A stretch of 64,000 nt of DNA from Alphaproteobacteria bacterium (lineage in GTDB: Bacteria; Pseudomonadota; Alphaproteobacteria; GM7ARS4; G965262615), in NCBI GenBank assembly GCA_965262615.1, contig OZ253545.1:1115113-1179112 (forward strand), in the 5' to 3' direction. Shown here piece by piece: positions 1 to 48,027 of the stretch (the stretch's first letter is position 1; each line of letters opens with the position of its first letter). Both the position numbers and the translations under genes were made by a program. Under the pieces are notes generated by a model. That model was given only the letters and a program-made list of their open reading frames with translations, was not told the DNA's origin and ran no database searches.

Positions 1-877
1 GGAAGATGCTCTGACGCTGGAGCAGTTGGCGCAGCAGGAATCCGATGATGAGGTGTTGCGGGAGGTGGCGGAATCCTTGTTGCCGCTGCATGGCGAATTA
101 ATGCAGGCGCGGTTTTTGACCATGATGGAGGGCGAGGCTGACCATCGGGATTGTTTCGTTGAGATTCATGCGGGCTCCGGCGGCACAGAGGCACAAGACT
201 GGGCGGAGATGTTGCTGCGCATGTATATGCGCTGGGCGAATCGCCGTGATTTTGCCTGTGATTTCATTGAGAACAATGCCGGACAAGAAGCCGGCATCAA
301 ATCGGCAACCATTCGCATTGATGGTGAGTATGCCTATGGCTGGCTGAAGCGGGAGTCGGGGGTTCATCGCTTGGTGCGGCTCTCGCCGTTTGATTCCGCC
401 ATGCGCCGTCATACCAGTTTTGCCTCAATCAAATGCTATCCGGTGATTGATGACTCCATTGATATTGTCATTGAGGATAAAGATTTACGCATTGACACCT
501 ATCGCGCTTCGGGCGCGGGCGGACAGCATGTCAACAAAACCGACAGTGCGGTGCGGATTACCCATTTGCCCACATCGCTGGTGGTGCAGTGTCAAAATGA
601 TCGCTCGCAGCATCGCAACAAGGCGGCGGCGATGACCATGCTCAAAGCCAAACTGTTTGAGCTGGAACTGCAAAAGCGCGAATCAGAAAAACAAGCCGGC
701 AGACAGGCGGAAAAGGACATCTCGTGGGGCAATCAAATTCGCTCCTATGTGCTCCATCCCTATCGCATGATCAAAGACCTGAGAACTCACCACGAGAGCG
801 GCAACACCGATGCGGTATTAGGTGGCGAAATTGATGCCTTCCTGCAGGCATCTCTTACCGCCCAGCTGGAGTCATGA
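1..877 (+). CDS. prfB: Peptide chain release factor 2 (RF2), 5'-truncated at window edge
   Basis: Reading frame is open from nt 2. Contains the GGQ motif region ([24 protein letters not shown]) and an RF2-type C-terminal domain. The N-terminal part, including any programmed frameshift site, lies outside the window. Confidence 0.9.
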
Positions 878-2203
878 GGATAAATTGATTTCATTCAAAA
901 CTTTTTGAGCTTCGGCATAACCTTGTTTGGCAGATTCCTTTAGCCATTTCAACGCTTCTTTAACATCCTGCGTTACACCCTCGCCTTTGAAATACACTCC
1001 ACCCAGAAGATATTGAGCTTTGGCAAGACCTTGTTCAGCAGCTTTTTTGTACCAATTGAACGCCTCTTTTTGATCCTGTGCTACACCCTCGCCATCGAAA
1101 TAAATCACACCTAGATTATACTGGGCTTCATCCAATCCTTGTTCAGCAGCTTTTTTAATCCACTTGACTGCTTCTTTTTGATTATGCGTCACAGCCTCGC
1201 CTTTGTGATACATCACACCTAGATTATATTGTGCTTCGGCATGACCTTGCCCAGCAGCTTTTTCAAACCACTTAACTGCTTCTTTTATATCCTGTGTCAC
1301 ACCCTCGCCATTGAAATAAGCCAAGCCTAGATTACATTGGGCTGGAACATGACCTTGCTGGACAGCTTTTTTATACCAATTGACTGCTTGGGTTGTATCT
1401 TTCGTAATACCATCGCCTTCATGATAAACCACACCAAGATTGTATTGGGCTTCGACAATACCTTGTTCAGCAGCTTTTTTGTACCAATTGAACGCTTGGG
1501 CTTTATCCTGTGCCACACCCTTGCCATTGGTATAAAACACCCCTAGATTATATTGTGCTTCGGCAAGACCTTGTTCAGCAGCTTTTTCAAACCACTTGAT
1601 TGCTTTTGTTTGATCTTGCGTCACACCATCGCCATTGGCATAAAACACCCCTAGATTACATTGGGACTCGGCATGACCTTGTTCAGCAGCTTTTTTGTAC
1701 CATTTCGCCGCTTTTTTATAATCTTGCGTCACTCCTTCACCCTTGGCATACATGATACCAAGATTGCATTGGGCTTTGGCATAACCTCGTTGGGCAGCTT
1801 TTTCAAACCATTTGGCAGCTTCGTTGTAATTCTTAATAGAAACACATTCTAAACCGTAGTTGAAATACCCCTGTGGAGAGCCAAAAAACAAACCCTCTAT
1901 AAATAAAACCAAATTTTTAATGCCAGTAGGAATGTCAGCATCTATGTTATTTGTCATTAGTTGCAACAGTTTAATAATTTTGTGGGGAAATCTAGCAATG
2001 CCAAAGAGGACAATCGCAAAGATTCCCAATTCTACTAACAATTCTTCCAGCTTATTCACTATTAAGCCAAAAGCGAAAAGCAATACACAGATGCCAACTG
2101 CCCCTACACAGAGACAAAGTAACATCGCAAGGGCTTTCTTCCAATTGCGAGGCGCGTACTCTTTGATGAATTCTAATATGATTTTCAAATTAGAATCAGC
2201 CAT
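872..2203 (-). CDS. Sel1-like repeat (SLR) protein with N-terminal membrane domain (two predicted TM helices, FFGSPxGYFxYGxEC motif) and about 9 Sel1 repeats
   Basis: Repeated ~36-aa units AxAQxNLGxMYxxGxGVxQDxxKAxxWxxKAAEQG are typical of Sel1/TPR-like repeats. The N-terminal architecture is shared with ORF 3511..4620. Confidence 0.85.
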
Positions 2204-2295
2204 GCACTGGACATACCATACTTGCCCCCCCTCCGTCCATGTTTTTCACAACACTGAGGCGATTAGGCGGCGACATTGACGAATTCCTGCAAGCA

Positions 2296-3495
2296 TCACT
2301 CACTGAGCAGCTGAAGTAAAGCTTCTTGGGCTGGAGCAAGTCCTTGCTCGGCAGCTTTTTGATACAATTCCATGGCTTTTTTCTTATTCTTTTCTAATCC
2401 CCCATAACCATCTTCATACATGAGACCAAGATTGAATTGTGCTTGGGCATACCCTTGATTGGCAGCTTGTTGCCACCAAAACACCGCTTTTTTTATATTC
2501 TCCTTCAATCCCCCCTCACCTTTGCCATACATCAGACCAAGAGAGGTTTGGGCTGAGGCAAATCCTTGCTCGGCAGCTTGTTGCCACCATTCCACCGCTT
2601 TTTTCTTATTCACCTTCACCCCCAGCCCGTTGTAATACATTATACCAAGATTGTTTTGGGCTTGGGTATACTCTTGTTGGGCAGATTTTTGATACAATTT
2701 CAACGCTTCTTCCATATCCCGCTTCAATCCCCCTTCGCCGTTTTGATACATCACACCAAGGTTGTTTTGGGCTGGAGCAAATCCTTGGTCGGCAGATTTT
2801 TGATACAATTCCAACGCTTTTTCATCATCTTGCGTCACCCCATAACCGTTGGAATACATCACACCAAGATTGTATTGAGCTTCGGCATGTTTTTGTTGGG
2901 CAGCTTTTTGATACCATTGCACCGCCTTTTCATAATCCTGCGTCACTCCATAACCGTTGGCATACATCACACCAAGATTGGATTGGGCTTCGGTATTCTC
3001 TTGCTCGGCAGCTTTTTGATACCAATACACCGCTTTTTCATAATCCTGCGTGACACCTATGCCATTTTCATACATCACACCAAGATTGTATTGAGCTTCG
3101 GCATGTTTTTGTTGGGCAGCTTTTTGATACCATTGCACCGCCTTTTCATCATCCTGTGTCACTCCCCAACCATTGTCATACATCACACCAAGATTGTTTT
3201 GGGAATCGGCATGACCTTGTTCAGCAGATTTTTGCCACCATTGCACCGCCTCTTCATCATCCTGCGTCACCCCATCACCGTTGAGATACATCCAACCAAG
3301 CTCTGCTTGAGATTCGGCATCCCCTTGTTTGGCAGATTGCAATATCTCATAGTGGGAGTCTGATAAGGCATCATTCGCCGCGCTCAAGGAAAAACATGTC
3401 ATGACAATGGCGAACAAAAACGCCGTGCGACTCACACGCCCCGCCGAGATATTTGCTTTATGCCAATTCATCCAATCACTATATCCCTCGTCCAT
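2296..3495 (-). CDS. Secreted Sel1-like repeat protein (signal peptide plus about 9 Sel1 repeats)
   Basis: Sel1 consensus repeats. N-terminus MDEGYSDWMNWHKANISAGRVSRTAFLFAIV; the true start is probably the internal ATG at 3471 (MNWHK), because the upstream codons coincide with a TTGCAA-N17-TATAGT promoter. Confidence 0.85.
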   Translation of the reverse strand: MDEGYSDWMNWHKANISAGRVSRTAFLFAIVMTCFSLSAANDALSDSHYEILQSAKQGDAESQAELGWMYLNGDGVTQDDEEAVQWWQKSAEQGHADSQNNLGVMYDNGWGVTQDDEKAVQWYQKAAQQKHAEAQYNLGVMYENGIGVTQDYEKAVYWYQKAAEQENTEAQSNLGVMYANGYGVTQDYEKAVQWYQKAAQQKHAEAQYNLGVMYSNGYGVTQDDEKALELYQKSADQGFAPAQNNLGVMYQNGEGGLKRDMEEALKLYQKSAQQEYTQAQNNLGIMYYNGLGVKVNKKKAVEWWQQAAEQGFASAQTSLGLMYGKGEGGLKENIKKAVFWWQQAANQGYAQAQFNLGLMYEDGYGGLEKNKKKAMELYQKAAEQGLAPAQEALLQLLSE

Positions 3496-3506
3496 GTTTT
3501 TGCAAC
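3472..3506 (-). promoter_or_regulatory. Sigma70-like promoter (TTGCAA-N17-TATAGT) ending 6 nt before the ATG at 3471; predicted leaderless transcript
   Basis: Read directly from the sequence. The same TTGCAA/TTGTGA-N16-17-TATAGT/TATAAT/TATGGT-N6-ATG arrangement recurs at 5676..5709, 7055..7088, 13078..13110 and 13675..13707. Confidence 0.5.
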
Positions 3507-3510
3507 ACTG

Positions 3511-4620
3511 TCATAATCTTTCTTTGATTTTATTCAAGGCTTCTTGAGCATCGCCATGACCTTGCTCGGCGGCTTGTTGCCACCATTCCATCGCTTTTTC
3601 CGTGTCTTGCGGGACACCCTCGCCAGTGAAATAAATGATGCCCAGATAGAACTGAGATTGGGTAAAACCTTGCTGGGCGGCTTTGGTAATCCATTGTGCC
3701 GCCTGCCGATCATTTGCTTCCACACCGTAGCCATCGTAATAAGCCACGCCCAGATTATGCTGAGCGAAAACAAAACCCTGTCCAGCCGCTTTTTTGAACC
3801 ATTTCACGGCTTGTGTTTGATCCCTCGTAATGCCATCACCATTGGCATACGCCATACCGAGATTATGCTGGGCGAGAACAAAACCCTGTCCAGCCGCTTT
3901 TTTATACCACCTGACGGCTTCTTTTTGATTCTGCGCGATGCCATCACCATTGGCATACGCCACAGCGAGATTGTGTCGGGCGAGAACAAAGCCTTTGTGG
4001 GCGGCTTTTGTGTACCATTTGACGGCTTCTTCTTGATCCTTCGTAATCCCATCACCGTTGGCATACGCCACGCCGAGATTGTATTGAGCAGCGCCAAGAT
4101 TTTGCTCCGCCGCTTTTGTGTACCACTTGACGGCTTGTGTTTGATCCTTCATAATCCCATAGCCATTGTGATAAGCCACACCCAGATTGAATTGGGCTTG
4201 GGCAAGACCTTGTTCAGCAGCTTTTTGAAACCATTTGCCAGCTTCGGTGTCATTCTGGCTCAAAAGACATTCCACACCGTATTGAAAATACCCGCGCGGC
4301 GAGCCGAAAAACAAACCCTCCACGAAGAAAAGCGATTTTTTAATGGAAGTTGCCATGTCATCATGTGACATCGGCGGCAATGATTGAATCATGGCGGGGG
4401 AAAACGCGGCAACGAGAAAGAGACAATTCAACAACAATCCCAAGACTTCTGGCAGTCTTCCCAGCCCATCCGTTGCCGCCATAAGGAGCAGAACAGGAAA
4501 ATTGCAACAAATAAGTCTTGCAAGAGCCTCCGACAAATCGCGAGGCAGTTGTTCTTTGATGAATTCTAATGTGATTTTGGTATCAGAAGCAATCATGCGC
4601 CGGACATACCACGACTGCAC
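3511..4620 (-). CDS. Sel1-like repeat protein with N-terminal membrane domain (paralog of 872..2203)
   Basis: Sel1 repeats plus the shared motif [23 protein letters not shown]. Likely start is MIASDTKITLEF (ATG at about 4596), preceded by the conserved sequence GGTATGTCCGGCGC-ATG. Confidence 0.85.
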   Translation of the reverse strand: MQSWYVRRMIASDTKITLEFIKEQLPRDLSEALARLICCNFPVLLLMAATDGLGRLPEVLGLLLNCLFLVAAFSPAMIQSLPPMSHDDMATSIKKSLFFVEGLFFGSPRGYFQYGVECLLSQNDTEAGKWFQKAAEQGLAQAQFNLGVAYHNGYGIMKDQTQAVKWYTKAAEQNLGAAQYNLGVAYANGDGITKDQEEAVKWYTKAAHKGFVLARHNLAVAYANGDGIAQNQKEAVRWYKKAAGQGFVLAQHNLGMAYANGDGITRDQTQAVKWFKKAAGQGFVFAQHNLGVAYYDGYGVEANDRQAAQWITKAAQQGFTQSQFYLGIIYFTGEGVPQDTEKAMEWWQQAAEQGHGDAQEALNKIKERL

Positions 4621-4711
4621 TTTTCAATCAATATTTTGACAACACCAAGAGGCGGTATTAGGTGGCGACATTGACAAATTTTTGCAGGCATCTTTGACTG
4701 CCCAATTGGAG

Positions 4712-5675
4712 TCATGATGATTTTTTAACTACACTCAAGGCTCTTCGAGCTGGGACATAACCTTGTTCATCAGCTTTTTCAAGCCACTTGACACCTTCTT
4801 TTTGATCCTGCGTCACACCCTCGCCTTTACCATAAGCCACACCTAGATTATATTGAGCTGGGGCATCACCTTGTTCGGCGGCTTTTCGCCACCACCGCAC
4901 CGCCTCCTCTTTATCCTTATCCACACCGTTGCCATTAAGATAAGCCAAGCCAAGATTGTATTGAGCTTTGGCATAATTTTGTTTGACAGCTTCTTTGTAC
5001 CATCGCACTGCTTTCTCTTCATCCTTACCCACACCATTGCCATTTTCATACATCACGCCAAGATTATATTGAGCTTGAACAATTCCTTGTTGGGCAGCTT
5101 CTTGCCACCACCGCACGGCTTCTGTTTGATTCTGCGTCACACCCTCGCCATTGAAATACATCACACCGAGATTATATTGTGCTTCGGCATGACCCTTCTG
5201 GGCTGCGCTTTTGAAGTGCTGCAACGCTTTTACCTTATTTGGCTTCATCACTATCACCACTGTAATACCTCATACCAAGCCTGAATGCTTCTTCGGCTTC
5301 GTATTTATTTTTCTTGTCTCGCATGAATAAAAGCTCGCCAAGAATTGGAATTCCGATGACTAAAACAATACTAATTGCAAAACCTGACAAAAGAACGAGC
5401 AGAACAACAAACCCCCAAAAAATGAAGGATGCATCCATATGTGCCACCAGCCAGTTTTCTTGCAAACTTGACAGAGCATCCGCCAATGCACTAATAGCTA
5501 GGGATGAAAAATAAACAATGGGAAGAAAGAATACCGCAAGCCAAAAAAAGTTATGCCAATACCTTGGCAGGTTCTTCATGAAGGCTGAAACTTCAGATTC
5601 TCTAAGGTCACCTATTACTTGATGCTCTGGACGCACAGAGGCTACAAAACCGCTAGTATTTTCATTCTCACCCAT
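4712..5675 (-). pseudogene. Sel1-like repeat gene split by a single-base frameshift (membrane N-terminal ORF 5235..5675 plus Sel1 C-terminal ORF 4712..5260)
   Basis: The two ORFs overlap by 26 nt in different frames. Removing one A from the homopolymer run in CCAAATAAGG near 5240 restores a continuous Sel1 repeat (GDSDEANKVKALQHFKSAAQKG). A perfect TTGCAA-N16-TATAAT promoter lies at 5682..5709. Confidence 0.6.
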
Positions 5676-5770
5676 CCTCCTATTATATCCCCGTCCATAT
5701 TTTTTGCAACACTTTGCGGGGATTCATCACAAGGGGTGGAGCTGGCGAGGGCGCAATTGATGCCTTGGCA

Positions 5771-7078
5771 TCACTCACTGTACAGTTGAAGTAAAGCCTC
5801 TCGGGCATCGGCATGACCTTGCTCAGCAGCTTTTTGCCACCATTTCACCACTTTTTCATAATTTCGCGCCACCCCCTCACCGTTGGCATACATCTCACCA
5901 AGATTGAATTGGGCTTCAGCATTCCCTTGTTTGGCAGCTTTTTGATACCACTGCACCGCTTTTTTCTGATCCTGCGTTACCCCCTCACCTTCGTCATACA
6001 TCATACCAAGATATAATTGTGCTAGGGCATAACCTTGTTTGGCAGCTTTTTGCCACCATTCTATCGCTTTTTCCATATTCTGCCTCAATCCCCCCTCACC
6101 ATCGGCATACATGACAGCAAGCATGAATTGGGCTTTGGCGACACCTTGTTGGGCAGCTTGTTGTAACCAGAACACCGCTTTTCCCTTATCCTGTGCCACC
6201 TCCTCACCGTTCACATACATGACACCAAGAGCTGTTTGAGCTAGGGCATCACCTTGTTGGGCAGCTTTTTGCCACCATTCTATCGCTTTTTCCTTATCCT
6301 GCCTCAATCCCCCCTGCCCTTTGCCGTACATGAGACCAAAATTATATTGGGCTTCAGCATTCCCTTGTTCAGCAGCTTTTTGCCACAATTCCACCGCTTT
6401 TTCATAATCTTGCGTCACTCCCTTACCGCCATGATACATCAAGCCAAGATTAAATTGAGCATCAGCATAATCTTGTTGGGCAGCTTTTGTGTACCACTTG
6501 ACCGCTTCTTTTTTATCCTGCGTCACACCATAGCCATTGGCATAAGCCACACCAAGATTATATTGAGCTGGAGCATCACCTTGCTCAGCTGCTTTTTGAT
6601 ACCATTGCACCGCTTTTTCATAATTTTGCGTCACCCCCTTACCGGACTCATACATGACACCAAGACCGAATTGGGCTTCGGCAATACCTTGCTCGGCAGC
6701 TTTTAGCCACCATTCCGCCGCTTTTTCATAATTCTGAGTCACCCCATAACCATTGGCATACATGACACCAAGAGAAAATTGGGCTTGAACAATATCTTGT
6801 TGGGCAGCTTTTTGATACCAGAACATCGCTTTTTCATAATCCTGCGTCACCCCCTCACCGTTGAAATACATAAAGCCAAGATTGTGTTGGGCTTCGGCAT
6901 CCCCTTGTTTGGCAGATTGCAATATCTCATATTGCTCATCTGATAACGCTACCGCCACTGAGCTCAAGGCAGGGAATGTAATAAAGACAGTGACAAGCAA
7001 GAACGCCGCGCGACTCACACGCCGCGCCGATATCTTTGTTTCGTTCCAATTCATCCAATCACTATACCCCTCGCCCAT
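5771..7078 (-). CDS. Secreted Sel1-like repeat protein (about 10 repeats)
   Basis: Sel1 consensus repeats and the MGEGYSDWMNWNETKISARRVSRAAFLL N-terminus. Probable true start at 7054 (MNWNE), downstream of the TTGCAA(7083-7088)-N16-TATAGT(7061-7066) promoter. Confidence 0.85.
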   Translation of the reverse strand: MGEGYSDWMNWNETKISARRVSRAAFLLVTVFITFPALSSVAVALSDEQYEILQSAKQGDAEAQHNLGFMYFNGEGVTQDYEKAMFWYQKAAQQDIVQAQFSLGVMYANGYGVTQNYEKAAEWWLKAAEQGIAEAQFGLGVMYESGKGVTQNYEKAVQWYQKAAEQGDAPAQYNLGVAYANGYGVTQDKKEAVKWYTKAAQQDYADAQFNLGLMYHGGKGVTQDYEKAVELWQKAAEQGNAEAQYNFGLMYGKGQGGLRQDKEKAIEWWQKAAQQGDALAQTALGVMYVNGEEVAQDKGKAVFWLQQAAQQGVAKAQFMLAVMYADGEGGLRQNMEKAIEWWQKAAKQGYALAQLYLGMMYDEGEGVTQDQKKAVQWYQKAAKQGNAEAQFNLGEMYANGEGVARNYEKVVKWWQKAAEQGHADAREALLQLYSE

Positions 7079-7116
7079 CTTTTTGCAACACTTAGCGACA
7101 CTGTGTCACCAATGGT

Positions 7117-7736
7117 GCATGAAACATTTGACCCTTTGTCTTTTATCTTCGTTTTTTCTATCGTCTGTGGCATTGGCGGAGTCCTCGTCGCCGTTTGATG
7201 CCATGGGGGTGCGTGATGTGATGGCATCGGCGCGGGCTGGCGACAAAGAGGCGCAACATGCCCTCGCCATGCGCTATTATCACGGACGCGGCATCAAGCA
7301 GAATCTGGAAAAGGCCTATGAGTGGCACACCAAAGCCGCCATGCAAGATCACAGCGAGTCGCTGAACGAATTGGGATGGATGCACCTCAACGGTGAGTTC
7401 GTGCCGCAAGACGAAGACATCGCCATCGCCTTTTATGAGCGTTCGGCGGCGTTGGGCAATCCTCATGGGTGTGCGCATCTGGCGGAGATTTTTGCCATGC
7501 GCGGCGACTTCATGAACGCCACCATGCACCTGATGATGGCCAGCGACCCCACCGCAAGCCGCTATGTCATGAGCATGGGACACGCCGACCCAGAACTCCT
7601 CAAAATGCAAATCATGGATGAACTCACCCCCGAGCAGCTCATCACCGCTCGCCACAACGCCATGACATGGCAGCATCAACGGCGCGACACCATGAACAAT
7701 CAATCGCCCCTGCCCTTTGCGGTGAGCTTTCAATAA
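7117..7736 (+). CDS. Divergent Sel1-like repeat lipoprotein/secreted protein
   Basis: Signal peptide MKHLTLCLLSSFFLSSVALA, then degenerate Sel1 repeats (DKEAQHALAMRYYHGRGIKQNLEKAYEWHTKAA...). Start chosen at the first ATG with a signal peptide; the ORF-track start at 6861 overlaps the converging Sel1 gene. Confidence 0.6.
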
Positions 7737-7875
7737 ATTATCGCTCATTCGCCCCGCTCCCCTTCACCGGGGGGCGAGGCGCGCGGCTTGTTTTGATGAT
7801 CGCTCACATGAATTGCCACACAGAGCGTGGCGCGCGAGGCATTGTTTTAATGATCACTTTTTGCTACAGTCCTTC

Positions 7876-9022
7876 TATGGATGGTCAGACACATGTCTCA
7901 CTGCGTCAAAAAATTGACCACATCCGCACGATCCTGTCGCAAGAATATCAAAGAAAACACAAAGTCCCCTGGATTATCGCCTATTCGGGCGGTAAAGACA
8001 GCACATTTCTTTTGCATCTTGTCATGGAGTGCCTGCACAATGTGCCTGAAGAAAAGCGGGTGCGTCCTGTTTATGTTGTGTCCAATGATACCCTTGTGGA
8101 AAGTCCGCTTGTGAGTGAGCATTTACACAAAAGCATGAAGAAAATCAAATCATCGGCAAAAAAGCTTAATCTGCCCATCACCGCCACAATCACAGAGCCA
8201 GCACATTCCGATTCCTTTTGGGTGCAAGTCATTGGCAAAGGATACCCAACGCCCAATCGTATGTTTCGCTGGTGCACCGACCGTCTTAAAATCAAGCCCT
8301 CAACGGAATTCATCAAAAAGCAAGTGAGCCAAAGCGGCAATGTGATTTTACTCATGGGGACACGCAAATCAGAAAGTGCCTCAAGAGCCGCATCCATCAA
8401 TCGCCACAAACGCAAAGGCAACAGCATTTACAGTGACCACAATTCGCTGGAGCATTGCAAGGTCTTGTCCCCCATCGTGGATTTTGAGGATGATGAACTA
8501 TGGACATTTCTTTTGCAATCCAAGCCCCCCTGGGGAGGCAGCTATCGCAATTTGATTACATTGTATCGCAATGCGCGCGGCGGCGAATGCCCCACCGTCT
8601 TGAGCAAAACCGAAGCCCCAGGGTGCGGTTCGGCATCGCCGCGTTTTGGCTGTTGGGTCTGCACCGTGGTGGAAAAGGATAGCAGTCTTGAAGGATTGGT
8701 GGATTCGGGCTTTGAGCAGTTTGAGGCATTGGTGGATTTTCGCTTATGGCTACTGGAAATAAGAAGTGACCCCACATATCGCCTCGCCATTGACCGCAGA
8801 GGCAAAATCCGCACGAGAAAAGACGGCACAATCATGCCAAGAGCCTTTACAATTAAGGCGCGTGAGAAAATTTTGCAAAAACTATTGGAACTGCAAGAAG
8901 AAATGGCGATGAAATTAATTACGCCCCAAGAGATTGAAACAATTCGCGAAATATGGCAAAAAGACAAAGTGATGTTGAACAAGTCACCACACAAAAACAC
9001 ACGCCCCGTGTGTGTCATCTAA
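7876..9022 (+). CDS. PAPS-reductase superfamily protein, DndC/SspD-like (PP-loop ATP pyrophosphatase with C-terminal cysteine cluster)
   Basis: PP-loop motif IAYSGGKDST, followed by a Cys-rich segment GGECPTV...PGCGS...FGCWVC typical of DndC-type DNA sulfur-modification proteins. AT-richer than surrounding genes. Start chosen at MDGQTHV (7876) to avoid overlap with the upstream gene. Confidence 0.6.
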
Positions 9023-9040
9023 TCAGTCGGAGTATTCCAA

Positions 9041-10825
9041 ATGACGACAGAAAATGACGACTTGACAATCAGAGAAATGCCTGTTGGGGAAATTCTCGGA
9101 GGAAAATTTCTCGTTCCAGAATATCAGCGCGGCTATCGTTGGAGTAGAGACGAGGTTATAGAACTTCTTGAAGACATTCAAGATGCCCTCAATGATGGCG
9201 ATGACTACTATTTCATTGGCTCTTTCAATTTGATTAACGATAATCCAAACAAACCTTTTGAGGTTGTTGATGGGCAACAAAGATTGACAACAATTTCATT
9301 AATCGCAAGAGAAGCGCGCTTTTTGTTGCAAAAAGAGACTTCTAATTTGGGAGAAGAAGGGGTGGTTCATCTTATGTCAGCCCTTCTTAAAATTTCAGAC
9401 GAGGTTGTTCACTTTGATCGAAAAAGTGAACGAGAAGGATTTGAAAAACTTATGAAAGGCGACGCTACGAGCCACGACCAAATGTCAGTTGCTTCGAAAG
9501 AAGTAAAAGAATTTATAAAAAGAAAAAAAGAAGAGACCTCTCATGTAGGAAATACCGATGAGCTTGTTAGGTATATGAATTACCTTCTCAACAATGTGAA
9601 GGTAGTTTTTATCGTTGTTAAAGATGAAAAGATTGCATACAAAATTTTTGAAGCTCTTAATCTTCGGGGCAAACCTCTTGGCACGATAGATTCAATAAGA
9701 ATTTTTGTGTTCCGAAATATCAACAGGGAAAAATTTGAGTACTGCTTCAAATTGTGGGAAGACTTGGAGAATACCATGAGAATGACCCACAAAAGAGTTG
9801 ATGACCTTATGACTCAAATGTTTAATACATTCTTTGAGTGTCATAGAGGCATTAGAATTGAGGAAAATCACTTGTTCTCTAAAGTGGAGAATTCCTTTAA
9901 GCAGGAAGCACAAGATGAAAAAGAAAAAGAAAAAGAAAGCCAGAAAATATATCTGGATTTTTTTGAGAAAATCGTATCTATAGATGGTGGTAGCAAGAAA
10001 AATTTTCCTAACTATTACTTGGCTTCTGTTAAGCATGACCATGACCTGTGGAAAAAATTGGATGTGCCGATTTTTTTCAGAGAAGCTTTGTGCGGAACTA
10101 AAATATGGGATGGAAATAAAATATGCAGAGCTCCCATTGCTGCTATGTTTCATGCGTTAAATATGCCAAAACCTCGCATTACAACAGAACAAGCTAACAA
10201 TATTATGCATGACATGTACAGCTTAATTTCTCGCCTTGAAGCGTTGGGAATTCTTCGCGGGCAAAATGTATCAAAATGCAATTCTCGGCTAGCTGCTTTT
10301 GCTAAAAAACTCATCTATACAGAAGAAAATTTTGAGACAATCGCTCAAGAACTTTTTCAAGGCATCCATGACCAAGTTGATGGGGTCATGTCTGATAAAG
10401 ATTTTAGAGTTGAAATGACGGCTAATAAAAAAGTCAGAAGAGACAAAGCAAAAAGATTATTGCGGGATATTGAATTTGCCCGTAACAAGCAACTTGCCAA
10501 TGTGGGTAAAGAAATTCACATTGAACACATTTTGCCTCAAAATCCAAATGAAAAAGATTGGAAAGATTTTTCAGTGGAAGATAGGGATTACCACACAAAT
10601 CGCATTGGTAATTTTGCTTTGTTATTGGATGTTGATAATCAAAGAATCGGCAATAAGCCTTTTGCTGATAAAGTGCTTGTATACGCCGAAAACACGATAA
10701 CAACAACGAATGAATTAGCCAAAAACACAGATTGGACAAAAGATGATATTGATGAACGCAGTAAGCGGCTGGCAAAAGAGATTGCTGGTGTATGGAATTT
10801 CCATTACTACAACCCCTCACCCTGA
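9041..10825 (+). CDS. DUF262 (ParB-like NTPase) plus DUF1524 (HNH/His-Me nuclease) protein, GmrSD/SspE-like modification-dependent restriction enzyme candidate
   Basis: N-terminal DUF262 signature (YQRGYRW...FIGSF...VVDGQQRLTT) and C-terminal DUF1524-like HxxH...N motif (IHIEHILPQNP...NRIGNFALL). Markedly AT-rich, with poly-A/T tracts. Confidence 0.65.
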   Translation: MTTENDDLTIREMPVGEILGGKFLVPEYQRGYRWSRDEVIELLEDIQDALNDGDDYYFIGSFNLINDNPNKPFEVVDGQQRLTTISLIAREARFLLQKETSNLGEEGVVHLMSALLKISDEVVHFDRKSEREGFEKLMKGDATSHDQMSVASKEVKEFIKRKKEETSHVGNTDELVRYMNYLLNNVKVVFIVVKDEKIAYKIFEALNLRGKPLGTIDSIRIFVFRNINREKFEYCFKLWEDLENTMRMTHKRVDDLMTQMFNTFFECHRGIRIEENHLFSKVENSFKQEAQDEKEKEKESQKIYLDFFEKIVSIDGGSKKNFPNYYLASVKHDHDLWKKLDVPIFFREALCGTKIWDGNKICRAPIAAMFHALNMPKPRITTEQANNIMHDMYSLISRLEALGILRGQNVSKCNSRLAAFAKKLIYTEENFETIAQELFQGIHDQVDGVMSDKDFRVEMTANKKVRRDKAKRLLRDIEFARNKQLANVGKEIHIEHILPQNPNEKDWKDFSVEDRDYHTNRIGNFALLLDVDNQRIGNKPFADKVLVYAENTITTTNELAKNTDWTKDDIDERSKRLAKEIAGVWNFHYYNPSP

Positions 10826-11190
10826 GGGTGATTCTAGCAAATCTAATAACGCTTGAATTTTTATTGGTTTTTTCATGAGATGGAGCGTCATGCCGCGAGG
10901 TGATTCCACCGAATTTCGTGATTCCATCGCCTCGCCGCTGAGCATAATCAGATGGGTGATGCCCAGCGCGCGCCACTCATCTGCTGGTGGGGTGCGTGCG
11001 GCGTGGGAGGCTGTCTGGCGGTCGTAAATGAGAGTCACTCGTTTGTGCGGCGGCGGTGCGGTGAGCTCCTTCTTTTGCTTGACCTCTATTTTTGCTATGA
11101 CTTGCTCTATGATGCGTTTGAGTTCCCGCAAGAACAATGCGTCACTGACATCCAGAATCACAAGGTGATGGCGACTTTTCATATTTTTCA
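10817..11190 (-). CDS. Possible single-domain response-regulator receiver (CheY-like) protein
   Basis: C-terminal ...GITHLIMLSGEAME...HLMKKPIKIQALLDLLE resembles the receiver-domain alpha4-beta5-alpha5 region. Its start overlaps the divergent L,D-transpeptidase start, so the call is weak. Confidence 0.3.
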
Positions 11191-11704
11191 CACCCCTCAC
11201 ACTCCTTTTCGCGCCCATGCGGGCATTGTCAGATGGCGGCACCATACCATCTCTTGCCTGCTGGGCAAAGCGGGCGTGACGCGCCACAAGAAAGAAGGCG
11301 ATGGCGCAACGCCCGTGGGCATCATGCGGGGACACGCATTGTTCTACCGCAGCGACCGCATCCCGCCGCCGCCGTGCCCCATCACCCCCCGACCCATCCG
11401 CCGCTCCATGCGCTACTGTGATGACCCCGCCTCCCCTCTTTACAACCGCCTGTTTTTCACCTCATCCCCGCCGTCATGTTCTCATGAGCGATTGTGGCGC
11501 AATGACGGCATCTACGACATCATCCTCATCCTCACCCACAATCGCCACCCCAAAGTCGCGGGACACGGCAGCGCAATCTTCATTCATCTAGCAGACAATG
11601 AAACCTCCCACACCCAAGGCTGCATAGCTTGTCACTATGACGATTTGTGCAATTTGTTGTCTCATGTCTCTCGCTCAAGTCGCTTTATCATCCATCCCTC
11701 ATGA
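11174..11704 (+). CDS. L,D-transpeptidase (YkuD/ErfK) domain protein
   Basis: GDGATPVG ... HGSAIFIHLADNETSHTQGCIACHYDDL matches the YkuD catalytic His / S-x-GC-I-R/A motif. The exact start is uncertain. Confidence 0.55.
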   Translation, partial: TFHIFHTPHTPFRAHAGIVRWRHHTISCLLGKAGVTRHKKEGDGATPVGIMRGHALFYRSDRIPPPPCPITPRPIRRSMRYCDDPASPLYNRLFFTSSPPSCSHERLWRNDGIYDIILILTHNRHPKVAGHGSAIFIHLADNETSHTQGCIACHYDDLCNLLSHVSRSSRFIIHPS

Positions 11705-11766
11705 TGCGTCTTTCCCCGCACCCCGTCCAATTGCAACAAAGCGATGGAATATGGTAGGATAAGGGT

Positions 11767-13053
11767 ATGTCTGACAAAGCACCCAAAGCCATTGACAAAA
11801 CTAGTGAACCTGTGCCTGAGCCCACAAAAGACACTACCAGCAGTGGGTTGGATTATGTGCATCCTGATGCCGTTAACAAATTTATGAACCTGACGTTGGA
11901 CAAAATACCTGAGCAATTGCTCGAGCTTTTAGGTGGAACTGCTTTTTTATTAGCTCTTTTTTATTTTTCTGCCATCATTATTAAAAAATGGTTGGAAGCT
12001 TTAACACTTTATTCCAAAGATGTTACTGCACATTCGGCTATGAAGCGTTCCCTCTATGCCTCCCTCTATGCCTTTATCGTTATATTTGCTACAACAGCTA
12101 TTTATTCAGCGATTGTAACTATCGAAGATTTATTGCCCGAAGAAGGGCAAGATGAATACGAGCGTGGTATAAGGTATTATTACGGGATTGGCGTACCAAA
12201 AGATTACAAGAAAGCAGCTGAATGGTATCAAGAAGCTGCCGACCAAGGACTCGCCCAAGCCCAAAATAATCTTGGTGTGAGGTATGAGCGCGGCGAGGGT
12301 GTACCACAGGATTATGAAAAAGCGGTGGAATGGTATCAAGAGGCTGCCGACCAAGGACTCGCCCAAGCCCAAAACAATCTTGGTGTGATGTATGCCAACG
12401 GTTATGGGGTGACACAGGATTATAAAAAAGCGGTGGAATGGTATCAAAAAGCTGCCAAGCAAGGAAATGCCCAAGCCCAAAACAATCTTGGTGATATGTA
12501 TTACAGTGGTGATGGTGTGCCACAGGATTATAAAAAAGCGGTGAAATTCTATCAAGAAGCTGCCGACCAAGGACTCGCCCAAGCCCAAAGCAATCTTGGT
12601 TGGATGTATTACAACGGTTATGGTGTGACGCAGGATAGAAAAGAAGCTGTGGAATGGTGGCAAAAAGCTGCCGAGCAAGGATTCGCCAAAGCCCAGTTTA
12701 ATCTTGGTGCGGCGTATATCAAAGGTGATGATGTTAAGCAGGATTATGAAAAAGCGTTTGAATGGTATCAAAAAGCTGCCGAGCAAGGTTATGTCCAAGC
12801 CCAAACCAGTTTTGGTTTCATGTATGCCATGGGGCAGGGGGTGACGCAGGATTATAGAAAAGCGAAGGAGTGGTGGGAAAAAGCTGCCGACCAAGGGGAT
12901 GCCCAAGCCCAATTCAATCTTGGTTGGATGTATGAACACGGTGACGGGGTGACGAAAGATATAAAAAAAGCGATTGAATGGTATGAAAAAGCTGCCAAGC
13001 GAGGTCTTGAGGTAGCTATAGATGCTCTCAAAAGATTAAATAAAAACAAGTGA
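11767..13053 (+). CDS. Sel1-like repeat protein with N-terminal TM segments
   Basis: About 8 Sel1 repeats and a C-terminal ...AIDALKRLNKNK tail shared with paralogs. Upstream TTGCAA-N17-TAGGAT. Confidence 0.85.
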   Translation: MSDKAPKAIDKTSEPVPEPTKDTTSSGLDYVHPDAVNKFMNLTLDKIPEQLLELLGGTAFLLALFYFSAIIIKKWLEALTLYSKDVTAHSAMKRSLYASLYAFIVIFATTAIYSAIVTIEDLLPEEGQDEYERGIRYYYGIGVPKDYKKAAEWYQEAADQGLAQAQNNLGVRYERGEGVPQDYEKAVEWYQEAADQGLAQAQNNLGVMYANGYGVTQDYKKAVEWYQKAAKQGNAQAQNNLGDMYYSGDGVPQDYKKAVKFYQEAADQGLAQAQSNLGWMYYNGYGVTQDRKEAVEWWQKAAEQGFAKAQFNLGAAYIKGDDVKQDYEKAFEWYQKAAEQGYVQAQTSFGFMYAMGQGVTQDYRKAKEWWEKAADQGDAQAQFNLGWMYEHGDGVTKDIKKAIEWYEKAAKRGLEVAIDALKRLNKNK

Positions 13054-13077
13054 TACCATCGCCATCTCTTCCGTGTT

Positions 13078-13650
13078 GTGAAGAATGTGGCGATGGGATA
13101 TGGTGAGGGGATGGGTTGGAATAAAGCAAATGTATTGGCGAGGCGTGGTGGTGGCACGGCGTTTTTGTTTGCCATTGTCGTCATTGCTCATACGGGCTGG
13201 ATGGCGAGCGTGGCTCATGCTGATGCAACGGAAGAAGTGCAACAATGGATAGAATTCGCGAAGGGAGGCAGTGCCTTTTACCAAAACGAGGTTGGTTCTG
13301 CGTATGCCGATGGTCGGGGTGTCACGAAGGATTATGAAGAAGCGGTGTTCTGGTATCGCAGAGCCGCCGAACAAGGAAATGCCCTCGCCCAAGCCAATCT
13401 TGGGGTGATGTATAGGGATGGGATGGGTGTCACGCAGGATGATGAGGAAGCGGTGGAATGGTGGAAAAAAGCCGCCGAGCAAGAGAATGCCATAGCTCAA
13501 TTCAATCTTGGGGTGATGTATGGCAAGGGGATAGGCGTGGCACAGAGTGATGAAAAAGCCGTCTATTGGCTCACAAAAGCCGCCGAACAAGGCGATGAAG
13601 ATGCAACAGAAGTTCTCAAAACATTAGAAGAGTTAGAAAACAACAAGTGA
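13078..13650 (+). CDS. Secreted Sel1-like repeat protein (4 repeats)
   Basis: Signal peptide ...IAHTGWMASVAHA. Probable start at 13111 (MGWNK), after TTGTGA-N17-TATGGT-N6. The 3' 250 bp is about 95% identical to 37385..37630. Confidence 0.85.
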   Translation: MKNVAMGYGEGMGWNKANVLARRGGGTAFLFAIVVIAHTGWMASVAHADATEEVQQWIEFAKGGSAFYQNEVGSAYADGRGVTKDYEEAVFWYRRAAEQGNALAQANLGVMYRDGMGVTQDDEEAVEWWKKAAEQENAIAQFNLGVMYGKGIGVAQSDEKAVYWLTKAAEQGDEDATEVLKTLEELENNK

Positions 13651-13674
13651 TACTATCCCCATCTCTTCCGTGTT

Positions 13675-14565
13675 GTGAAGAATGTGGCGATGGGATATGG
13701 TGGGGGCATGAATTGGAATAAAGCAAATGTATTGGCGAGGCGTGGTGGTGGCATGGCTTTTTTGTTTGTCATTGTCGTCACATCTTTTTCCTTGAGTGCG
13801 GTGGCGGAGGATGACTTATCACAATTGGAAATTCTGGCAGAACAGGGGAATCCCTACGCCCAAAACGATCTTGGTGTCATGTATGAGGGCGGTGAGAGGG
13901 TGACGCAGGATTATGAAAAAGCGGTGTTTTGGTATCAACGCGCCGCTGAGCAGGGGTATGATGTCGCCCAATCCAATCTTGGCAATATGTATGACAGAGG
14001 CGATGGGGTGGCGCAGGATTATGAAGAGGCGGCTGAGTGGTATCAAAAAGCTGCTGAACAAGGCTATGCCCAAGCCCAATACAATCTTGGTGTGATGTAT
14101 GCTGAAGGTGAAGGGGTGATGCGAGATTATGAAAAGGTGGTGGAATGGTGGCAAAAAGCTGCCGACCAAGGTTTTGCCGATGCCCAATACAATCTTGGCT
14201 GGCTCTATTACTACGGCGAGGGAGTGACGCAGGATTATCAAAAAGCGGCTGAGTGGTATAGGCAAGCTGCTGGGCAAAATCATCACATTGCTCAGGCTCG
14301 GCTGGGTGTCATGGTTGCCAAGGGTTATGGGGTGAGGCAGGATGATGAAAAAGCGATGGAATGGTATCAAAAAGCGGAGGGACAAATCAAAAAGGATGCT
14401 GAGCGGGGCGATGACTATGCTCAATACACTCTTGGCTGGCTTTATGCTCAAGGTGGCGGAGCCAATCCCAGCATGCAACAGGCGATAAAATGGCTACGCA
14501 AAGCCGCAGAGCAAGGGAGTTCATTTGCTCACGATGAGCTCAAAAGATTAGAAAAAAACAACTAA
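13675..14565 (+). CDS. Secreted Sel1-like repeat protein
   Basis: Sel1 repeats. Probable start at 13708 (MNWNK), after the same promoter arrangement. Confidence 0.85.
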   Translation: MKNVAMGYGGGMNWNKANVLARRGGGMAFLFVIVVTSFSLSAVAEDDLSQLEILAEQGNPYAQNDLGVMYEGGERVTQDYEKAVFWYQRAAEQGYDVAQSNLGNMYDRGDGVAQDYEEAAEWYQKAAEQGYAQAQYNLGVMYAEGEGVMRDYEKVVEWWQKAADQGFADAQYNLGWLYYYGEGVTQDYQKAAEWYRQAAGQNHHIAQARLGVMVAKGYGVRQDDEKAMEWYQKAEGQIKKDAERGDDYAQYTLGWLYAQGGGANPSMQQAIKWLRKAAEQGSSFAHDELKRLEKNN

Positions 14566-15257: not shown

Positions 15258-15306
15258 GCCCGCAAATCAATTGCAACAAAATGATGAAATGTGGTAGGGT
15301 GGAGGC

Positions 15307-16536
15307 ATGAGCGACCAAGAAACAAAAACAGAGCTTCAACAGAATATCTTTTCCGTCACGCAAACAATTCCTAAAGAGTGGCAAAAGCCTACGGTGATAG
15401 GTATTTTGTTGCTCACTTTTTATTATTTTTCAACCACTATTATTAAGGATTGGCTTCGCCTTGTCATTATTTATGATTACGACTACCTACAGGATGCTTT
15501 AGATGCACTTTTTCATTTTTTTATTGTAGCATCTGTTTTATTTGCACTATGGCTAGTGGTGCAAATTGCCAAGCTATTACTGGAAGAAACTCAAGATGAA
15601 GCAAAAAAAGCTGCTGAGAAAGGAATACCTGAAGGTCAATACAGTCTTGGTTTGAAGTACTACTTTGGCAATGATGTGCCACAAGATTACGAGAAAGCGG
15701 TGGAATGGTGGCAAAAAGCTGCCCAACAAGGGATTGTCGAAGCCCAATACAATCTTGGTGTGATGTATGAGCGCGGTATGGGGGTGACGCAAAATTATGA
15801 AAAAGCGGTGGAATGGTATGAAAAAGCTGCCCAACAAGGGCTTGCCAAAGCCCAATACAATCTTGGTGTGATGTATGAGTTCAGTAAGGGAGTGGTGCAG
15901 AATTATGAAAAAGCGGTGCAATGGTATCAACAAGCTGCCCAACAAGGCGATGCCGATGCCCAATTCAATCTTGGTGGAATGTATGACAGAGGTTATGGGG
16001 TGGTGCAGGATTATGAAAAAGCGGTGGAATGGTATGAAAAAGCTGCCCAACAAGGGCTTGCCAAAGCCCAATACAATCTTGGTGGAATGTATAACAGAGG
16101 TGATGGGGTGACGCAGGATTACGAAAAAGCGGTGCAATGGTTTCAAAAAGCTGCCGAACAAGGTCTTGCAGAAGCTCAATACAATCTTGGTGGAATGTAT
16201 AACAGAGGTAATGGGGTGATGCAGAATTATGAAAAAGCGGTGGAATGGTGGCAAAAAGCTGCCCAACAAGGGATTGTCGAAGCCCAATCCAATCTTGGTA
16301 CGATGTATGATTTGGGTAGAGGAGTAAAGAAGAGTAAAGAAAAAGCTTTGGAATGGTATCAAAAAGCTGCCCAACAAGGTAATGCCCCAGCCCAATTCAA
16401 TCTTGGTTTAATGTATGCCAACGCTGATGGGGTGACGCAGGATTTGGAAAAAGCGAAGGAATGGATTAAAAAAGCTGCCGACCAAGGGCTTGAGGTAGCT
16501 ATAGATGCTCTCAAGGAATTAGAAAAAAAGAAGTGA
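15307..16536 (+). CDS. Sel1-like repeat protein with N-terminal TM segments
   Basis: About 9 Sel1 repeats. Upstream TTGCAA-N18-TAGGGT. C-terminal AIDALKELEKKK. Confidence 0.85.
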   Translation: MSDQETKTELQQNIFSVTQTIPKEWQKPTVIGILLLTFYYFSTTIIKDWLRLVIIYDYDYLQDALDALFHFFIVASVLFALWLVVQIAKLLLEETQDEAKKAAEKGIPEGQYSLGLKYYFGNDVPQDYEKAVEWWQKAAQQGIVEAQYNLGVMYERGMGVTQNYEKAVEWYEKAAQQGLAKAQYNLGVMYEFSKGVVQNYEKAVQWYQQAAQQGDADAQFNLGGMYDRGYGVVQDYEKAVEWYEKAAQQGLAKAQYNLGGMYNRGDGVTQDYEKAVQWFQKAAEQGLAEAQYNLGGMYNRGNGVMQNYEKAVEWWQKAAQQGIVEAQSNLGTMYDLGRGVKKSKEKALEWYQKAAQQGNAPAQFNLGLMYANADGVTQDLEKAKEWIKKAADQGLEVAIDALKELEKKK

Positions 16537-16604
16537 CACAGCCCTTGTCTTTTCACGAACGCCGTTCAGTTGCAACGCCTCATGAGCTGTGGTAGGGTGG
16601 CAAT

Positions 16605-17348
16605 GTGACAGATATTATCTCATCCCTCAAAGATATATTCCAAGAGTGGCACACGCTTATAGTGTTCCTTGCTGTTGCTTATTTTTTACCCAATATTATT
16701 AATAAATGGTCAGCTTTTGGGAAAAAAGATACAGACGCAACTAGAAAAATTGCCGAGAACGGAGAGCCCGACGGTCAAGACAATCTTATTTTTGTGCCAC
16801 AGGATGACGAGCAAACGGTGGAGTGGTGTCAAGAAGCTGCCGACCAAGGGATTGCCGAAGCCCAATACAATCTTGGTGAGATGTATCGCAGAGGTTATGG
16901 AGTAACGCAGAATTATGAAAAAATGGTGGAATGGTGGCAAAAAGCTGCCGACCAAGGATTTGCCGAAGCTCAATACAATCTTGGTGTGGCTTACGAAAAT
17001 GGGGTTGGTGTAAAAAAGGACTATAAAAAGGCGGTGCAATGGTATCAAAAAGCCGCGATGCAAGGTCATGCCAATACCCAAAACAATCTTGGTGGGATGT
17101 ATTCCAACGGTTATGGGGTAACGCAGAATATGGAAAAAGCGGTGGAATGGTGGCAAAAAGCTGCCAAACAAGAAAATGCCTCAGCCCAATACAATCTTGG
17201 CTTGATGTATGCCAACGGTGATGGTGTGACGCAGGATTATGAAAAAGCGAAGGAATGGTTGCAAAAAGCTGCACTGCAGGGGCATGATGATGCAGGGAAA
17301 ACTATTTTTAAATTAGAGGTATTGGAAGAATTAGCAAAAAAGAAGTGA
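16605..17348 (+). CDS. Sel1-like repeat protein
   Basis: About 5 Sel1 repeats with an N-terminal hydrophobic segment. Upstream TTGCAA-N17-TAGGGT. Confidence 0.8.
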   Translation: MTDIISSLKDIFQEWHTLIVFLAVAYFLPNIINKWSAFGKKDTDATRKIAENGEPDGQDNLIFVPQDDEQTVEWCQEAADQGIAEAQYNLGEMYRRGYGVTQNYEKMVEWWQKAADQGFAEAQYNLGVAYENGVGVKKDYKKAVQWYQKAAMQGHANTQNNLGGMYSNGYGVTQNMEKAVEWWQKAAKQENASAQYNLGLMYANGDGVTQDYEKAKEWLQKAALQGHDDAGKTIFKLEVLEELAKKK

Positions 17349-22020: not shown

Positions 22021-22054
22021 CTCCCCATCCTATCACATTCCATCATTTTTTGTG

Positions 22055-34401: not shown

Positions 34402-34705
34402 GATTGCAAGCTCAGCTATCCGATAAAATCAGCTGAATATCGCGCAATCTTTATTGACGAGGCGAGTCTTTTGCCAGTCATGTTTTGGGATGCCTCACCT
34501 TTTGGGATGCCTCATCGGCCTGCCGTCCCTTCGGATAAGGGACATACATGCTTTGCGGCATATTTTTGCGTCCTTCCTTCAGGGTCTTGGTGTTCATGAA
34601 GCGACAATGACCCATAACCGCCATGATTGCAAGCTCAGCTATCCGATAAAATCAGCTGAATATCGCGCAATCTTTGTTGATGGGGTGAGTCTTTTGCGAG
34701 CCATG
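34283..34705 (+). repeat. Tandem duplication, period 223 bp (two ~200-bp copies, about 97% identical), covering the fdsGB 5' end and intergenic region
   Basis: GATGCCTCATCGGC(T/C)TGCCGTCCCTTCGGATAAGGGACATACATGC... recurs at 34283 and 34506. Confidence 0.9.
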
Positions 34706-35954: not shown

Positions 35955-35999
35955 AGTATGATATAATCATGACGGTTAGCAAGGCAAAGGGCAAGAATC

Positions 36000-38114: not shown

Positions 38115-38183
38115 GGTGGTTAGAATATGTGCATTTGCAGGGTTTGTCAATGCCAAGATGCCTTACGGTCATTGCAGATGACC
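38115..38183 (-). promoter_or_regulatory. Conserved promoter TTGACA-N17-TATTCT-N7-ATG plus upstream palindrome GGTCATTGCAGATGACC (38167..38183)
   Basis: Promoter and palindrome are conserved upstream of 4 of the 5 DUF1640-like paralogs (41657..41735, 45649..45715, 46249..46300). Confidence 0.5.
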
Positions 38184-41656: not shown

Positions 41657-41808
41657 GGTGATGAGAGTATGGGCATTTCAAGAATTTGTCAATGGCAAGA
41701 CGCATTACGATCATTGCAGATGACCATGAGGCAAGAGTCACCATCATTCAAAAAAGAGCAGTTGCAATTGCGTCTTAACTTTGCCATCCAAAAGCGGTAT
41801 AAAAGCCC

Positions 41809-48010: not shown

Positions 48011-48027
48011 GGTTCTAATTTAATCAA

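Follow-up and report, generated by a model that had tools for sequence, protein, structure and literature searches.

Leaderless bacterial genes of the 'TA-led' type have been defined in silico (Zheng et al. 2011, PMC3160421), and the survey made at that time found their signal in 2 of 117 alphaproteobacterial genomes (PMC3160421). In Deinococcus deserti, a -10 motif lies directly upstream of leaderless start codons, and transcription start site (TSS) data led there to the re-annotation of 257 start codons, 152 of which were moved downstream (PMC4007540). Leaderless genes have been mapped experimentally in mycobacteria (PMC4633059) and in Caulobacter crescentus (PMC4117421, PMC8459731) as well; in Caulobacter, leaderless translation requires the AUG to be 5'-terminal, with no nucleotides added to it, and the 5' end to be open (PMC8459731). 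As for promoters, those with a T at -7 form a minority, lifestyle-specific class in the Alphaproteobacteria studied, most of whose sigma-70 promoters lack -7T (Myers et al. 2021, PMC8407463). In this report, we analyze a stretch of 64,000 nucleotides (nt) from an uncultured alphaproteobacterium (contig OZ253545.1, positions 1,115,113 to 1,179,112; hereafter the window), in which genes coding for Sel1-repeat proteins carry a promoter-like module immediately upstream of the start codon. Our main finding is that these modules are likely to be sigma-70-type promoters fused to start codons, which would yield leaderless transcripts and, in some genes, false extensions of the open reading frame (ORF). 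The kind of feature is already known; the Sel1 modules are an unusually clean instance of it, and the phenomenon reaches beyond the Sel1 family.

The window has a G+C content of 50% and contains prfB, leuS, a bio operon, hemB and a dcw cluster, together with 13 full-length Sel1-repeat genes, a split or truncated copy (4712..5260) and a short Sel1-like gene (7119..7736). The Pfam family Sel1 (PF08238) scored above its gathering threshold in the three genes tested (E = 2e-116, 2e-108 and 1.5e-101). LeuS of the window is about 55% identical to that of Rhodospirillales/Stellaceae metagenome-assembled genomes. Relatives were reached via 90%-identity clusters of LeuS and RF2 only, which gave eight syntenic contig segments (L015 to L023 minus L022, which offered no usable start); all but one of the contigs retrieved are from ENA assembly ERZ26695794. 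Their housekeeping genes are 92 to 97% identical to those of the window at the nucleotide level, and their gene calls come from an independent pipeline. Exact look-up of window proteins (FtsZ, and the product of the 2296 gene in both start versions) found no record, a homologue search with a 60-residue N-terminus found none, and an Rfam scan of the window found no family. A LeuS search of genome contigs returned a single 37% match from Clostridia, and a degenerate pattern of the promoter box described below had no match in genome contigs and 13 unrelated chance matches in metagenome contigs.

Seven sites had been singled out in the original prediction, and at each of them the sequence matches what had been described: a -35-like box, a spacer of 16 to 18 nt, a TAnnn(T/C) box and, after exactly 6 nt, an ATG. 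The -35 had been given as TTGCAA or TTGTGA, which is true of five sites (class A) but not of the modules of genes 3511..4596 and 872..2203. On the minus strand, the class A module of Sel1 gene 2296..3471 (3469..3508; box GTGTTGCAA) consists of TTGCAA (3500..3505), N16, TATAGT (3478..3483), GATTGG and the ATG (3469..3471), from which the protein reads MNWHKANISAGRVSR... and begins with a signal peptide. That of Sel1 gene 5771..7054 (7052..7091, minus strand; protein start MNWNETKISARR...) has TTGCAA (7083..7088), N16, TATAGT (7061..7066), GATTGG and ATG (7052..7054), and that of the membrane-protein gene 5235..5675 (5673..5712, minus strand) has TTGCAA (5704..5709), N16, TATAAT (5682..5687), AGGAGG and ATG (5673..5675). 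On the plus strand, Sel1 gene 13111..13650 (module 13073..13113; protein start MGWNKANVLARR...) shows TTGTGA (13076..13081), N17, TATGGT (13099..13104), GAGGGG and the ATG at 13111, and Sel1 gene 13708..14565 (module 13670..13710; MNWNKANVLARR...) shows TTGTGA (13673..13678), N17, TATGGT (13696..13701), GGGGGC and the ATG at 13708.

Two minus-strand Sel1 genes carry variants of this arrangement. In the module of gene 3511..4596 (4594..4645), the box GTGTTGTCA lies at 4637..4645 and we take TTGATT (4626..4631) as the working -35; it is followed by N17, TGgTATGTC (-10 TATGTC at 4603..4608), CGGCGC and the ATG (4594..4596; MIASDTKITLEF...). The long variant of gene 872..2203 (2201..2254) has a candidate -35 TGGACG (2234..2239), N18, TGgTATGTC (-10 TATGTC at 2210..2215), CAGTGC and the ATG (2201..2203). 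Its box GTGTTGTGA (2246..2254) stands 30 nt from the -10, which is too far, and TGGACG is the only -35-like hexamer at proper spacing. This gene also contains a 12-bp hairpin (ATTCTAATTTGA / TCATATTAGAAT; 2170..2196, minus strand) that begins 8 nt past the ATG.

Four further Sel1 genes, starting at 11767, 15307, 16605 and 22020, bear a class B module, homologous to that of class A and of the form (A/G)TTGCAAC, N17-18, TG(g/a)TAGG(A/G)T, N6 and ATG or GTG. Those on the plus strand all have TTGCAA: gene 11767..13053 (11731..11769) with N18, TGgTAGGAT, AAGGGT and ATG; gene 15307..16536 (15271..15309) with N18, TGgTAGGGT, GGAGGC and ATG; and gene 16605..17348 (16570..16607) with N17, TGgTAGGGT, GGCAAT and GTG. 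On the minus strand, gene 20464..22020 (22018..22056) has a weak -35, AGCACA, followed by N18, TGaTAGGAT, GGGGAG and ATG. The class B -10 begins with an in-frame TAG, a stop codon in the 11767 gene for instance, so that no upstream start is possible.

Window and relatives together provide 32 unique modules from the Sel1 arrays; T and A at -10 positions 1 and 2 were the criterion by which they were selected and hence are no evidence. In this set the -10 box is separated from the start codon by N6 in 25 modules and by N5 to N7 in 29, its position 6 is a T in 28, and TGn precedes it in 23, positions 3 to 5 being variable. The first three -35 positions are T in 31 modules, T or G (26 and 6, respectively) and G in 31, and the spacer measures 16 to 18 nt, as in sigma-70 promoters, in 31. 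Among paralogs the spacer varies by 1-nt indels (16, 17 or 18 nt) while the -10-to-ATG distance is mostly retained. The start codon is ATG in 29 of the 32, with exceptions at window gene 16605 (GTG) and at L017 4368 (GTG) and 5463 (TTG), and in-frame stops occur 2 to 5 codons upstream in 17. The 6-nt discriminator is 56% G; between orthologs its sequence varies and its length is kept (GATTGG/GAGAAG, CCTTCT/TACCCA, AGGAGG/GGGGGG/AGGGTA/GAGAGG). The last series concerns the 5675 gene, where, as had been pointed out, TATAAT is followed directly by AGGAGG-ATG: the AGGAGG abuts the ATG (spacing 0) and, since it varies among relatives, is not a conserved ribosome-binding site. Moreover, -10 variants devoid of a Shine-Dalgarno (SD)-like core (TAAAAT, TATCAT, TACCAT, TATATT, TATAGT) lie at the same distance from the ATG. 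A generic promoter scan was uninformative, as the Sel1 repeats, read on their antisense strand, look like TTGATA-N17-CATAAT.

Like the TA-led genes, class A genes have no SD at a functional distance, and the modules share with them a strong ATG preference and start codons mis-annotated upstream. They differ in that the Sel1 modules are known only as sequence, whereas TSSs have been mapped in D. deserti, mycobacteria and Caulobacter, and in that the signal is concentrated here in one expanded paralog family, the module being duplicated as a unit. D. deserti has no widely conserved -35 upstream of its TSSs, whereas TTGCAA and TGn are conserved here. The modules resemble the -7T promoters of Alphaproteobacteria in keeping A-11 and T-7 (28/32) and in preceding genes of an accessory or lifestyle type, but in this gene set -7T dominates.

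The sequence between the -35 and the start codon varies as expected of a promoter and not of a coding region. In the family whose signal peptides begin with MNW or MGW (eight diverged members), the invariant positions among the 24 nt that precede the ATG are GGG at -16 to -14, T at -12, A at -11, T at -7 and G at -6 (A of ATG = +1); three of these, -12, -11 and -7, coincide with the key positions of the sigma-70 -10 hexamer. In the would-be codon AGT/AAT/GGT, the third position (-7T) is fixed and the first and second vary, which is the opposite of a coding pattern. An upstream ATG is present at -24 in three of the eight members and at -18 in two. In the L019 ortholog of the gene that is extended to 7078, the upstream frame reads TDGGYNEK and contains no start codon as far back as the next stop; the L023 member reads GNGGYNEK, and in the 13111, 13708 and L021 copies an ATG or GTG occurs at other positions. 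In the 5675 and 2203 copies, the conserved 'CATGGACG' ATG (upstream 'ATGGACG') falls outside the reading frame, and the window's 5675 copy shares with the L019 ortholog the complete absence of an upstream start codon.

The original prediction held that the promoter is in frame with the gene, so that ORF finders extend the gene and create a conserved acidic peptide. Extension does occur in five window genes: MDEGYSDW (from ATG 3493..3495, gene 2296..3471), MGEGYSDW (from ATG 7076..7078, gene 5771..7054), MKNVAMGYG(E/G)G (13078.. and 13675..) and VQSWYVRR (3511..4620, from GTG 4620). The acidic peptide is thus limited to two of them, and the ORFs at 5675 and 2203 remain without an extension. In the relatives the gene caller likewise produced MGYNER/MSANEAK, VQLWYIWH/MADSNLK, MTKCGKMGG/MNLDI, LWYIGH/MADNEF and VLQKCGNGGYNEK/MNWDE (extension/N6 start), other orthologs being called at the N6 ATG. 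Because the upstream ATG is unconserved, missing in an ortholog and out of frame in paralogs, we regard M(D/G)EGYSDW as an ORF-finder artefact, and the predicted false N-terminus is borne out.

The N-termini themselves agree with this. Signal peptides have a positively charged n-region; the extension would add three acidic residues, and MDEGYSDW would cancel the +3 of the n-region. By inspection, a Sec signal peptide with a charged n-region, a hydrophobic h-region and small residues at -3 and -1 (for example MNWHKANISAGRVSRT-AFLFAIVMTCFSL-SAA/ND) begins at 3471, 7054, 13111 and 13708. A good signal peptide had been announced for every site, which is correct for these four, the MNW/MGW genes; those that start at 2203, 4596 and 5675 have instead cytoplasmic N-termini followed by membrane segments.

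The geometry is found more often than expected by chance. The window contains 20 occurrences of TTGNNN-N16-18-TANNNT-N5-7-ATG, compared to 5.4 +/- 2.2 in first-order Markov simulations, and in 13 of them the ATG begins an ORF of 100 codons or more. At the 123 non-identical starts called in the relatives, TAnnnT is found at N6 in 17 cases and at N5 in 6, for about 1.9 expected per offset; the nominal P of the N6 peak, 3e-11, is too optimistic as many copies are related, and the peak rests on at least eight unrelated promoter sequences.

Indeed, unrelated promoter sequences with the same geometry precede five small coiled-coil genes, a DndC-like gene, an M48 peptidase gene and the first gene upstream of bioA. 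The coiled-coil genes are designated 'DUF1640-like' as a label only, since the best Pfam scores for DUF1640/CCDC90-like (PF07798), 21.0 and 16.9 bits, fall below the cut-off of 33.5. Gene 45736..46248 has TTGACA N17 TATTCT N7 ATG (46246..46284, minus strand), and the other copies of this module lie at 38112..38150 (minus), 41654..41692 (minus, with TACTCT), 43273..43311 (plus) and 45646..45684 (minus). Two of the five copies are 93-codon ORFs (43309..43590, plus; 45367..45648, minus), paralogs with the family promoter that fall below the 120-residue listing threshold. The DndC-like (PAPS_reduct) gene 7877..9022 (7842..7879, plus) is preceded by TTGTTT N17 TACAGT N6 ATG; a relative has TAAAGT TACCCA ATG, in which five of the six discriminator bases differ and the length is the same. 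The M48 peptidase gene 34635..35945 (35943..35982, minus) has TTGCTA N18 TACTAT N7 ATG and a signal peptide (MKRFIFLVL...), in front of which the ORF finder places MTF, starting at an ATG that overlaps the 3' end of the -10 box, and gene 47612..48010, upstream of bioA (48008..48045, minus), has TTGCTA N17 TAAATT N6 ATG. LeuS (TTTACA N17 TACAAT N6 ATG) was also considered and was dropped as a candidate, since its ATG and the stop of the preceding gene overlap (ATGA) and the relatives have N9.

The in-silico tests run all favour a functional -10 from which transcription would begin on the A of the ATG; a coding extension is favoured by none of them. In the mechanism that we propose, RNA polymerase holoenzyme would bind the -35 (TTGCAA, TTGTGA or TTGATT) and the -10 (TAnnnT, often with an upstream TGn) across a spacer of 16 to 18 nt. 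As the -10 ends 6 nt, at times 5 or 7, before the ATG, transcription would begin about 7 nt past it, on the purine A, and the mRNA, having neither a 5' untranslated region nor an SD, would be translated by leaderless initiation on its 5'-terminal AUG. We infer the transcription start position and leaderless translation from this geometry and from the position of the -10. The mechanism is in accord with the in-silico signature of leaderless genes (PMC3160421), with what has been mapped in D. deserti (PMC4007540) and with the conditions measured in Caulobacter (PMC8459731). The promoter-plus-start module would have been copied along with the Sel1 genes during the expansion of the family, and would recur because the two were duplicated together. 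Where the promoter is open in the frame of the gene and holds an ATG or GTG, gene callers would run the ORF into it and invent a short N-terminal peptide.

Several observations weigh against this proposal. The copies are paralogs and orthologs, and their counts overstate independence. The predicted 5' ends are mostly unstructured, but their unfolding has a median cost of 0.7 kcal/mol (n = 11), compared to 2.7 for internal ATGs (p = 0.07) and 2.1 for other starts (p = 0.25), an advantage over controls that is non-significant; the highest value of the set, 8.1 kcal/mol, is that of gene 872..2203 and comes from the hairpin after its ATG. At L017 4368 and 5463, ACT stands in place of the N6 ATG and the called GTG and TTG lie at N9, one L019 copy has N3, and the GTG of gene 16605 is a poor start for leaderless initiation in Caulobacter (PMC8459731). 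An internal GTG in the MNW genes (VSRTAFLF...) would also yield a textbook signal peptide, and in L019 the gene caller once chose this codon (VSRAAFLF). The class B -10 (TAGGAT, TAGGGT, TAAGGT) contains AGGA, AGGG or AAGG at the ideal SD distance (spacing 7), and is ambiguous when judged from its letters. Finally, Sel1 genes 36000 and 39554 have an extended -10 some 30 to 40 nt upstream and a leader with a normally spaced SD, and the dcw genes, mgtE, fdhA and other operon-internal genes have ordinary AGGAG-type SD sites. Such SD-led genes beside genes with a -10 at N6 indicate that the organism uses both modes: the suggestion of widespread leaderless translation is reasonable in view of the non-Sel1 genes that share the geometry, but does not extend to operon-internal housekeeping genes. 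The two L017 genes are neighbouring Sel1 genes on the plus strand (TAGGAT GGAGAT ACT GTG... and TAGGAT AGCGGC ACT TTG...), and may represent start-codon loss or silencing of leaderless genes.

Among the alternatives, the one that survives best, which we still consider quite unlikely, is that the upstream half of the box (GTGTTGCAAAAACATGGACGG) is kept mainly as a recombination junction or regulator site and not as a -35, only TAnnnT-N6-ATG being related to a promoter. The box is conserved beyond the needs of a -35, including an A-tract and CATGGACGG, and its distance to the ATG varies from 34 nt in short variants to about 46 to 50 nt in long ones. Its first 6 to 7 nt, GTGTTGC, are the reverse complement of the prfB codons G-N-T, at which every extra copy of the prfB tail begins. 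Synteny breakpoints between strains adjoin or fall in boxes (two at window 3512 and 7072; L018 12574, minus; L020 16848, minus), and where L018 and L020 correspond to window 7091, they retain only GTGTTGCAAAAAGATGG, the first 17 to 20 nt or so of the box, before homology gives way to unrelated sequence. However, short variants have TTGCAA at the canonical 16 to 18 nt from the -10, TTGCAA(C) is kept in class B promoters remote from prfB as well, neither inverted repeats nor attC-like structures were found at boxes or tails, and the arrays contain no recombinase gene among their called genes. Such a role for the box would moreover be compatible with leaderless expression and not opposed to it.

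Could the purine-rich stretch be an SD on a leadered mRNA made from a promoter farther upstream, the TAnnnT being coincidental? The organism clearly uses SDs elsewhere, the class B cores stand 7 nt from the ATG, the Trm112-like gene of the relatives (TAAGGTGAATC-ATG, inside an operon) is most naturally read in this way, and L017 4368 has GGAG 5 nt ahead of its called GTG. We nevertheless hold this to be very unlikely. TATAGT GATTGG, TATGTC CGGCGC, TATATT TAGCAC and the TAAAAT, TATCAT and TACCAT variants have no SD core, at an unchanged distance, and neither class A nor these last variants have an SD at a functional distance, the G-rich hexamers abutting the ATG at a spacing of 0 to 2, too near for such a role. 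Moreover, T at positions 1 and 6 is conserved and is not needed by an SD, and the TTGCAA box lies at 16 to 18 nt with no conserved alternative promoter upstream. As for a genuine M(D/G)EGYSDW extension, made from a real upstream ATG through re-initiation or SD-independent initiation, the frame is open, the peptide is near-identical in two window genes and one relative, and the stop of 3511..4620, 15 nt before ATG 3495, permits re-initiation, but the absent, displaced and out-of-frame ATGs, the anti-coding variation and the cancelled charge described above, the lack of an SD before the upstream ATG (CAAAAAC-ATG) and the lack of a co-directional gene upstream of the 7078 gene make it highly improbable.

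Fusion of promoter and start codon, as favoured here, has practical consequences. Annotation of this lineage should rely on a leaderless model when placing start codons: the -10-at-N6 signature is found at about one gene start in five at the sampled loci, and automated callers disagree between orthologs, with false extensions of 6 to 13 residues or internal starts. Such mis-set starts affect signal-peptide prediction and the family alignments of secreted and membrane Sel1 proteins. If the proposal is true, an alphaproteobacterial lineage would express a large, fast-evolving accessory family almost entirely from leaderless transcripts. A single module of about 35 bp would supply both transcription and translation signals, which makes the family well suited to asking whether leaderless expression renders duplicated or transferred genes self-sufficient.

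The relation of the boxes to prfB is a separate lead, compatible with the promoter reading. In addition to the live prfB tail (788..877), diverged copies of its last 20 or so codons lie on the plus strand at about 2246..2318, 4637..4716 and 5704..5795, and in the relatives at L018 8352..8414 and 10506..10529, L019 14618..14659 and 15512..15571, and L020 14755..14806. Each extra tail begins exactly at CAACAC, adjoins a Sel1 promoter box and runs over the stop of a convergent Sel1 gene. Of the codons that distinguish the 2263..2318 copy from the live tail, about half differ synonymously, as read by eye. This copy is similar to the live tails found in L019 and L020 (TEQLK), the live tail varying by strain (TAQLES or TEQLKS).

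The array may have arisen by unequal recombination between repeated modules or by cassette insertion at the prfB 3' end. A more specific scenario, which we regard as unlikely, is that the box is both the Sel1 promoter and an arm of a recombination site with a CAACAC core in the last 25 or so prfB codons; the array would then result from serial insertion of single-gene cassettes, each bringing a leaderless promoter and a replacement tail that displaces the older tail outward. If true, this would be an integron-like cassette system without attC hairpins and without an integrase in cis. The likeness to integrative elements that insert at 3' ends, and to integron arrays, lies in the diverged prfB tails bounded by CAACAC, each beside one promoter-bearing gene, and in an array that varies between strains. 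Unlike those systems, the arrays have no integrase among their called genes, attC-like inverted repeats are missing, for lack of which we rejected an attC/integron origin proper, and some units have no tail; moreover, integron cassettes are mostly devoid of their own promoter, whereas the Sel1 cassettes carry theirs. Unequal recombination between repeats could yield the same picture.

Other features of the region deserve mention. The TTGCAA of the 7054 promoter is palindromic, and the divergent small Sel1 gene at 7119 (MKHLTLCLL...; 7083..7120) has it as well, 17 nt upstream of its TCACCA N7 ATG. The two genes may share one -35 region, the -10 of 7119 being poor. The membrane N-terminal ORF 5235..5675 and the Sel1-repeat ORF 4712..5260 (minus strand) overlap in different frames and together resemble one gene; the split recurs in L023 (16176..16616 and 15866..16189), which points either to an old frameshift or to a deliberate arrangement.

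Between the Sel1 array and a YkuD-like gene (window about 7700..11300; L016 654..3130; L019 17820..20576; L023 17387..20512) lies a slot in which defence-type genes differ by strain: DndC-like and GmrSD in the window, L017 and L021, HNH/HIT with CD-NTase and Cap15 in L016, HNH/HIT with an SMC/AAA ATPase in L019, and Multi_ubiq/DUF6791/ThiF/BubE in L023. This slot is a variable defence-island hot spot. Elsewhere in the window, the divergent genes bioF (minus) and hemB (plus) have start codons that overlap in a CATG palindrome (51195..51198), so that each promoter must sit within the other gene; upstream of bioF the sequence reads TGaTAGTGT N7 ATG.

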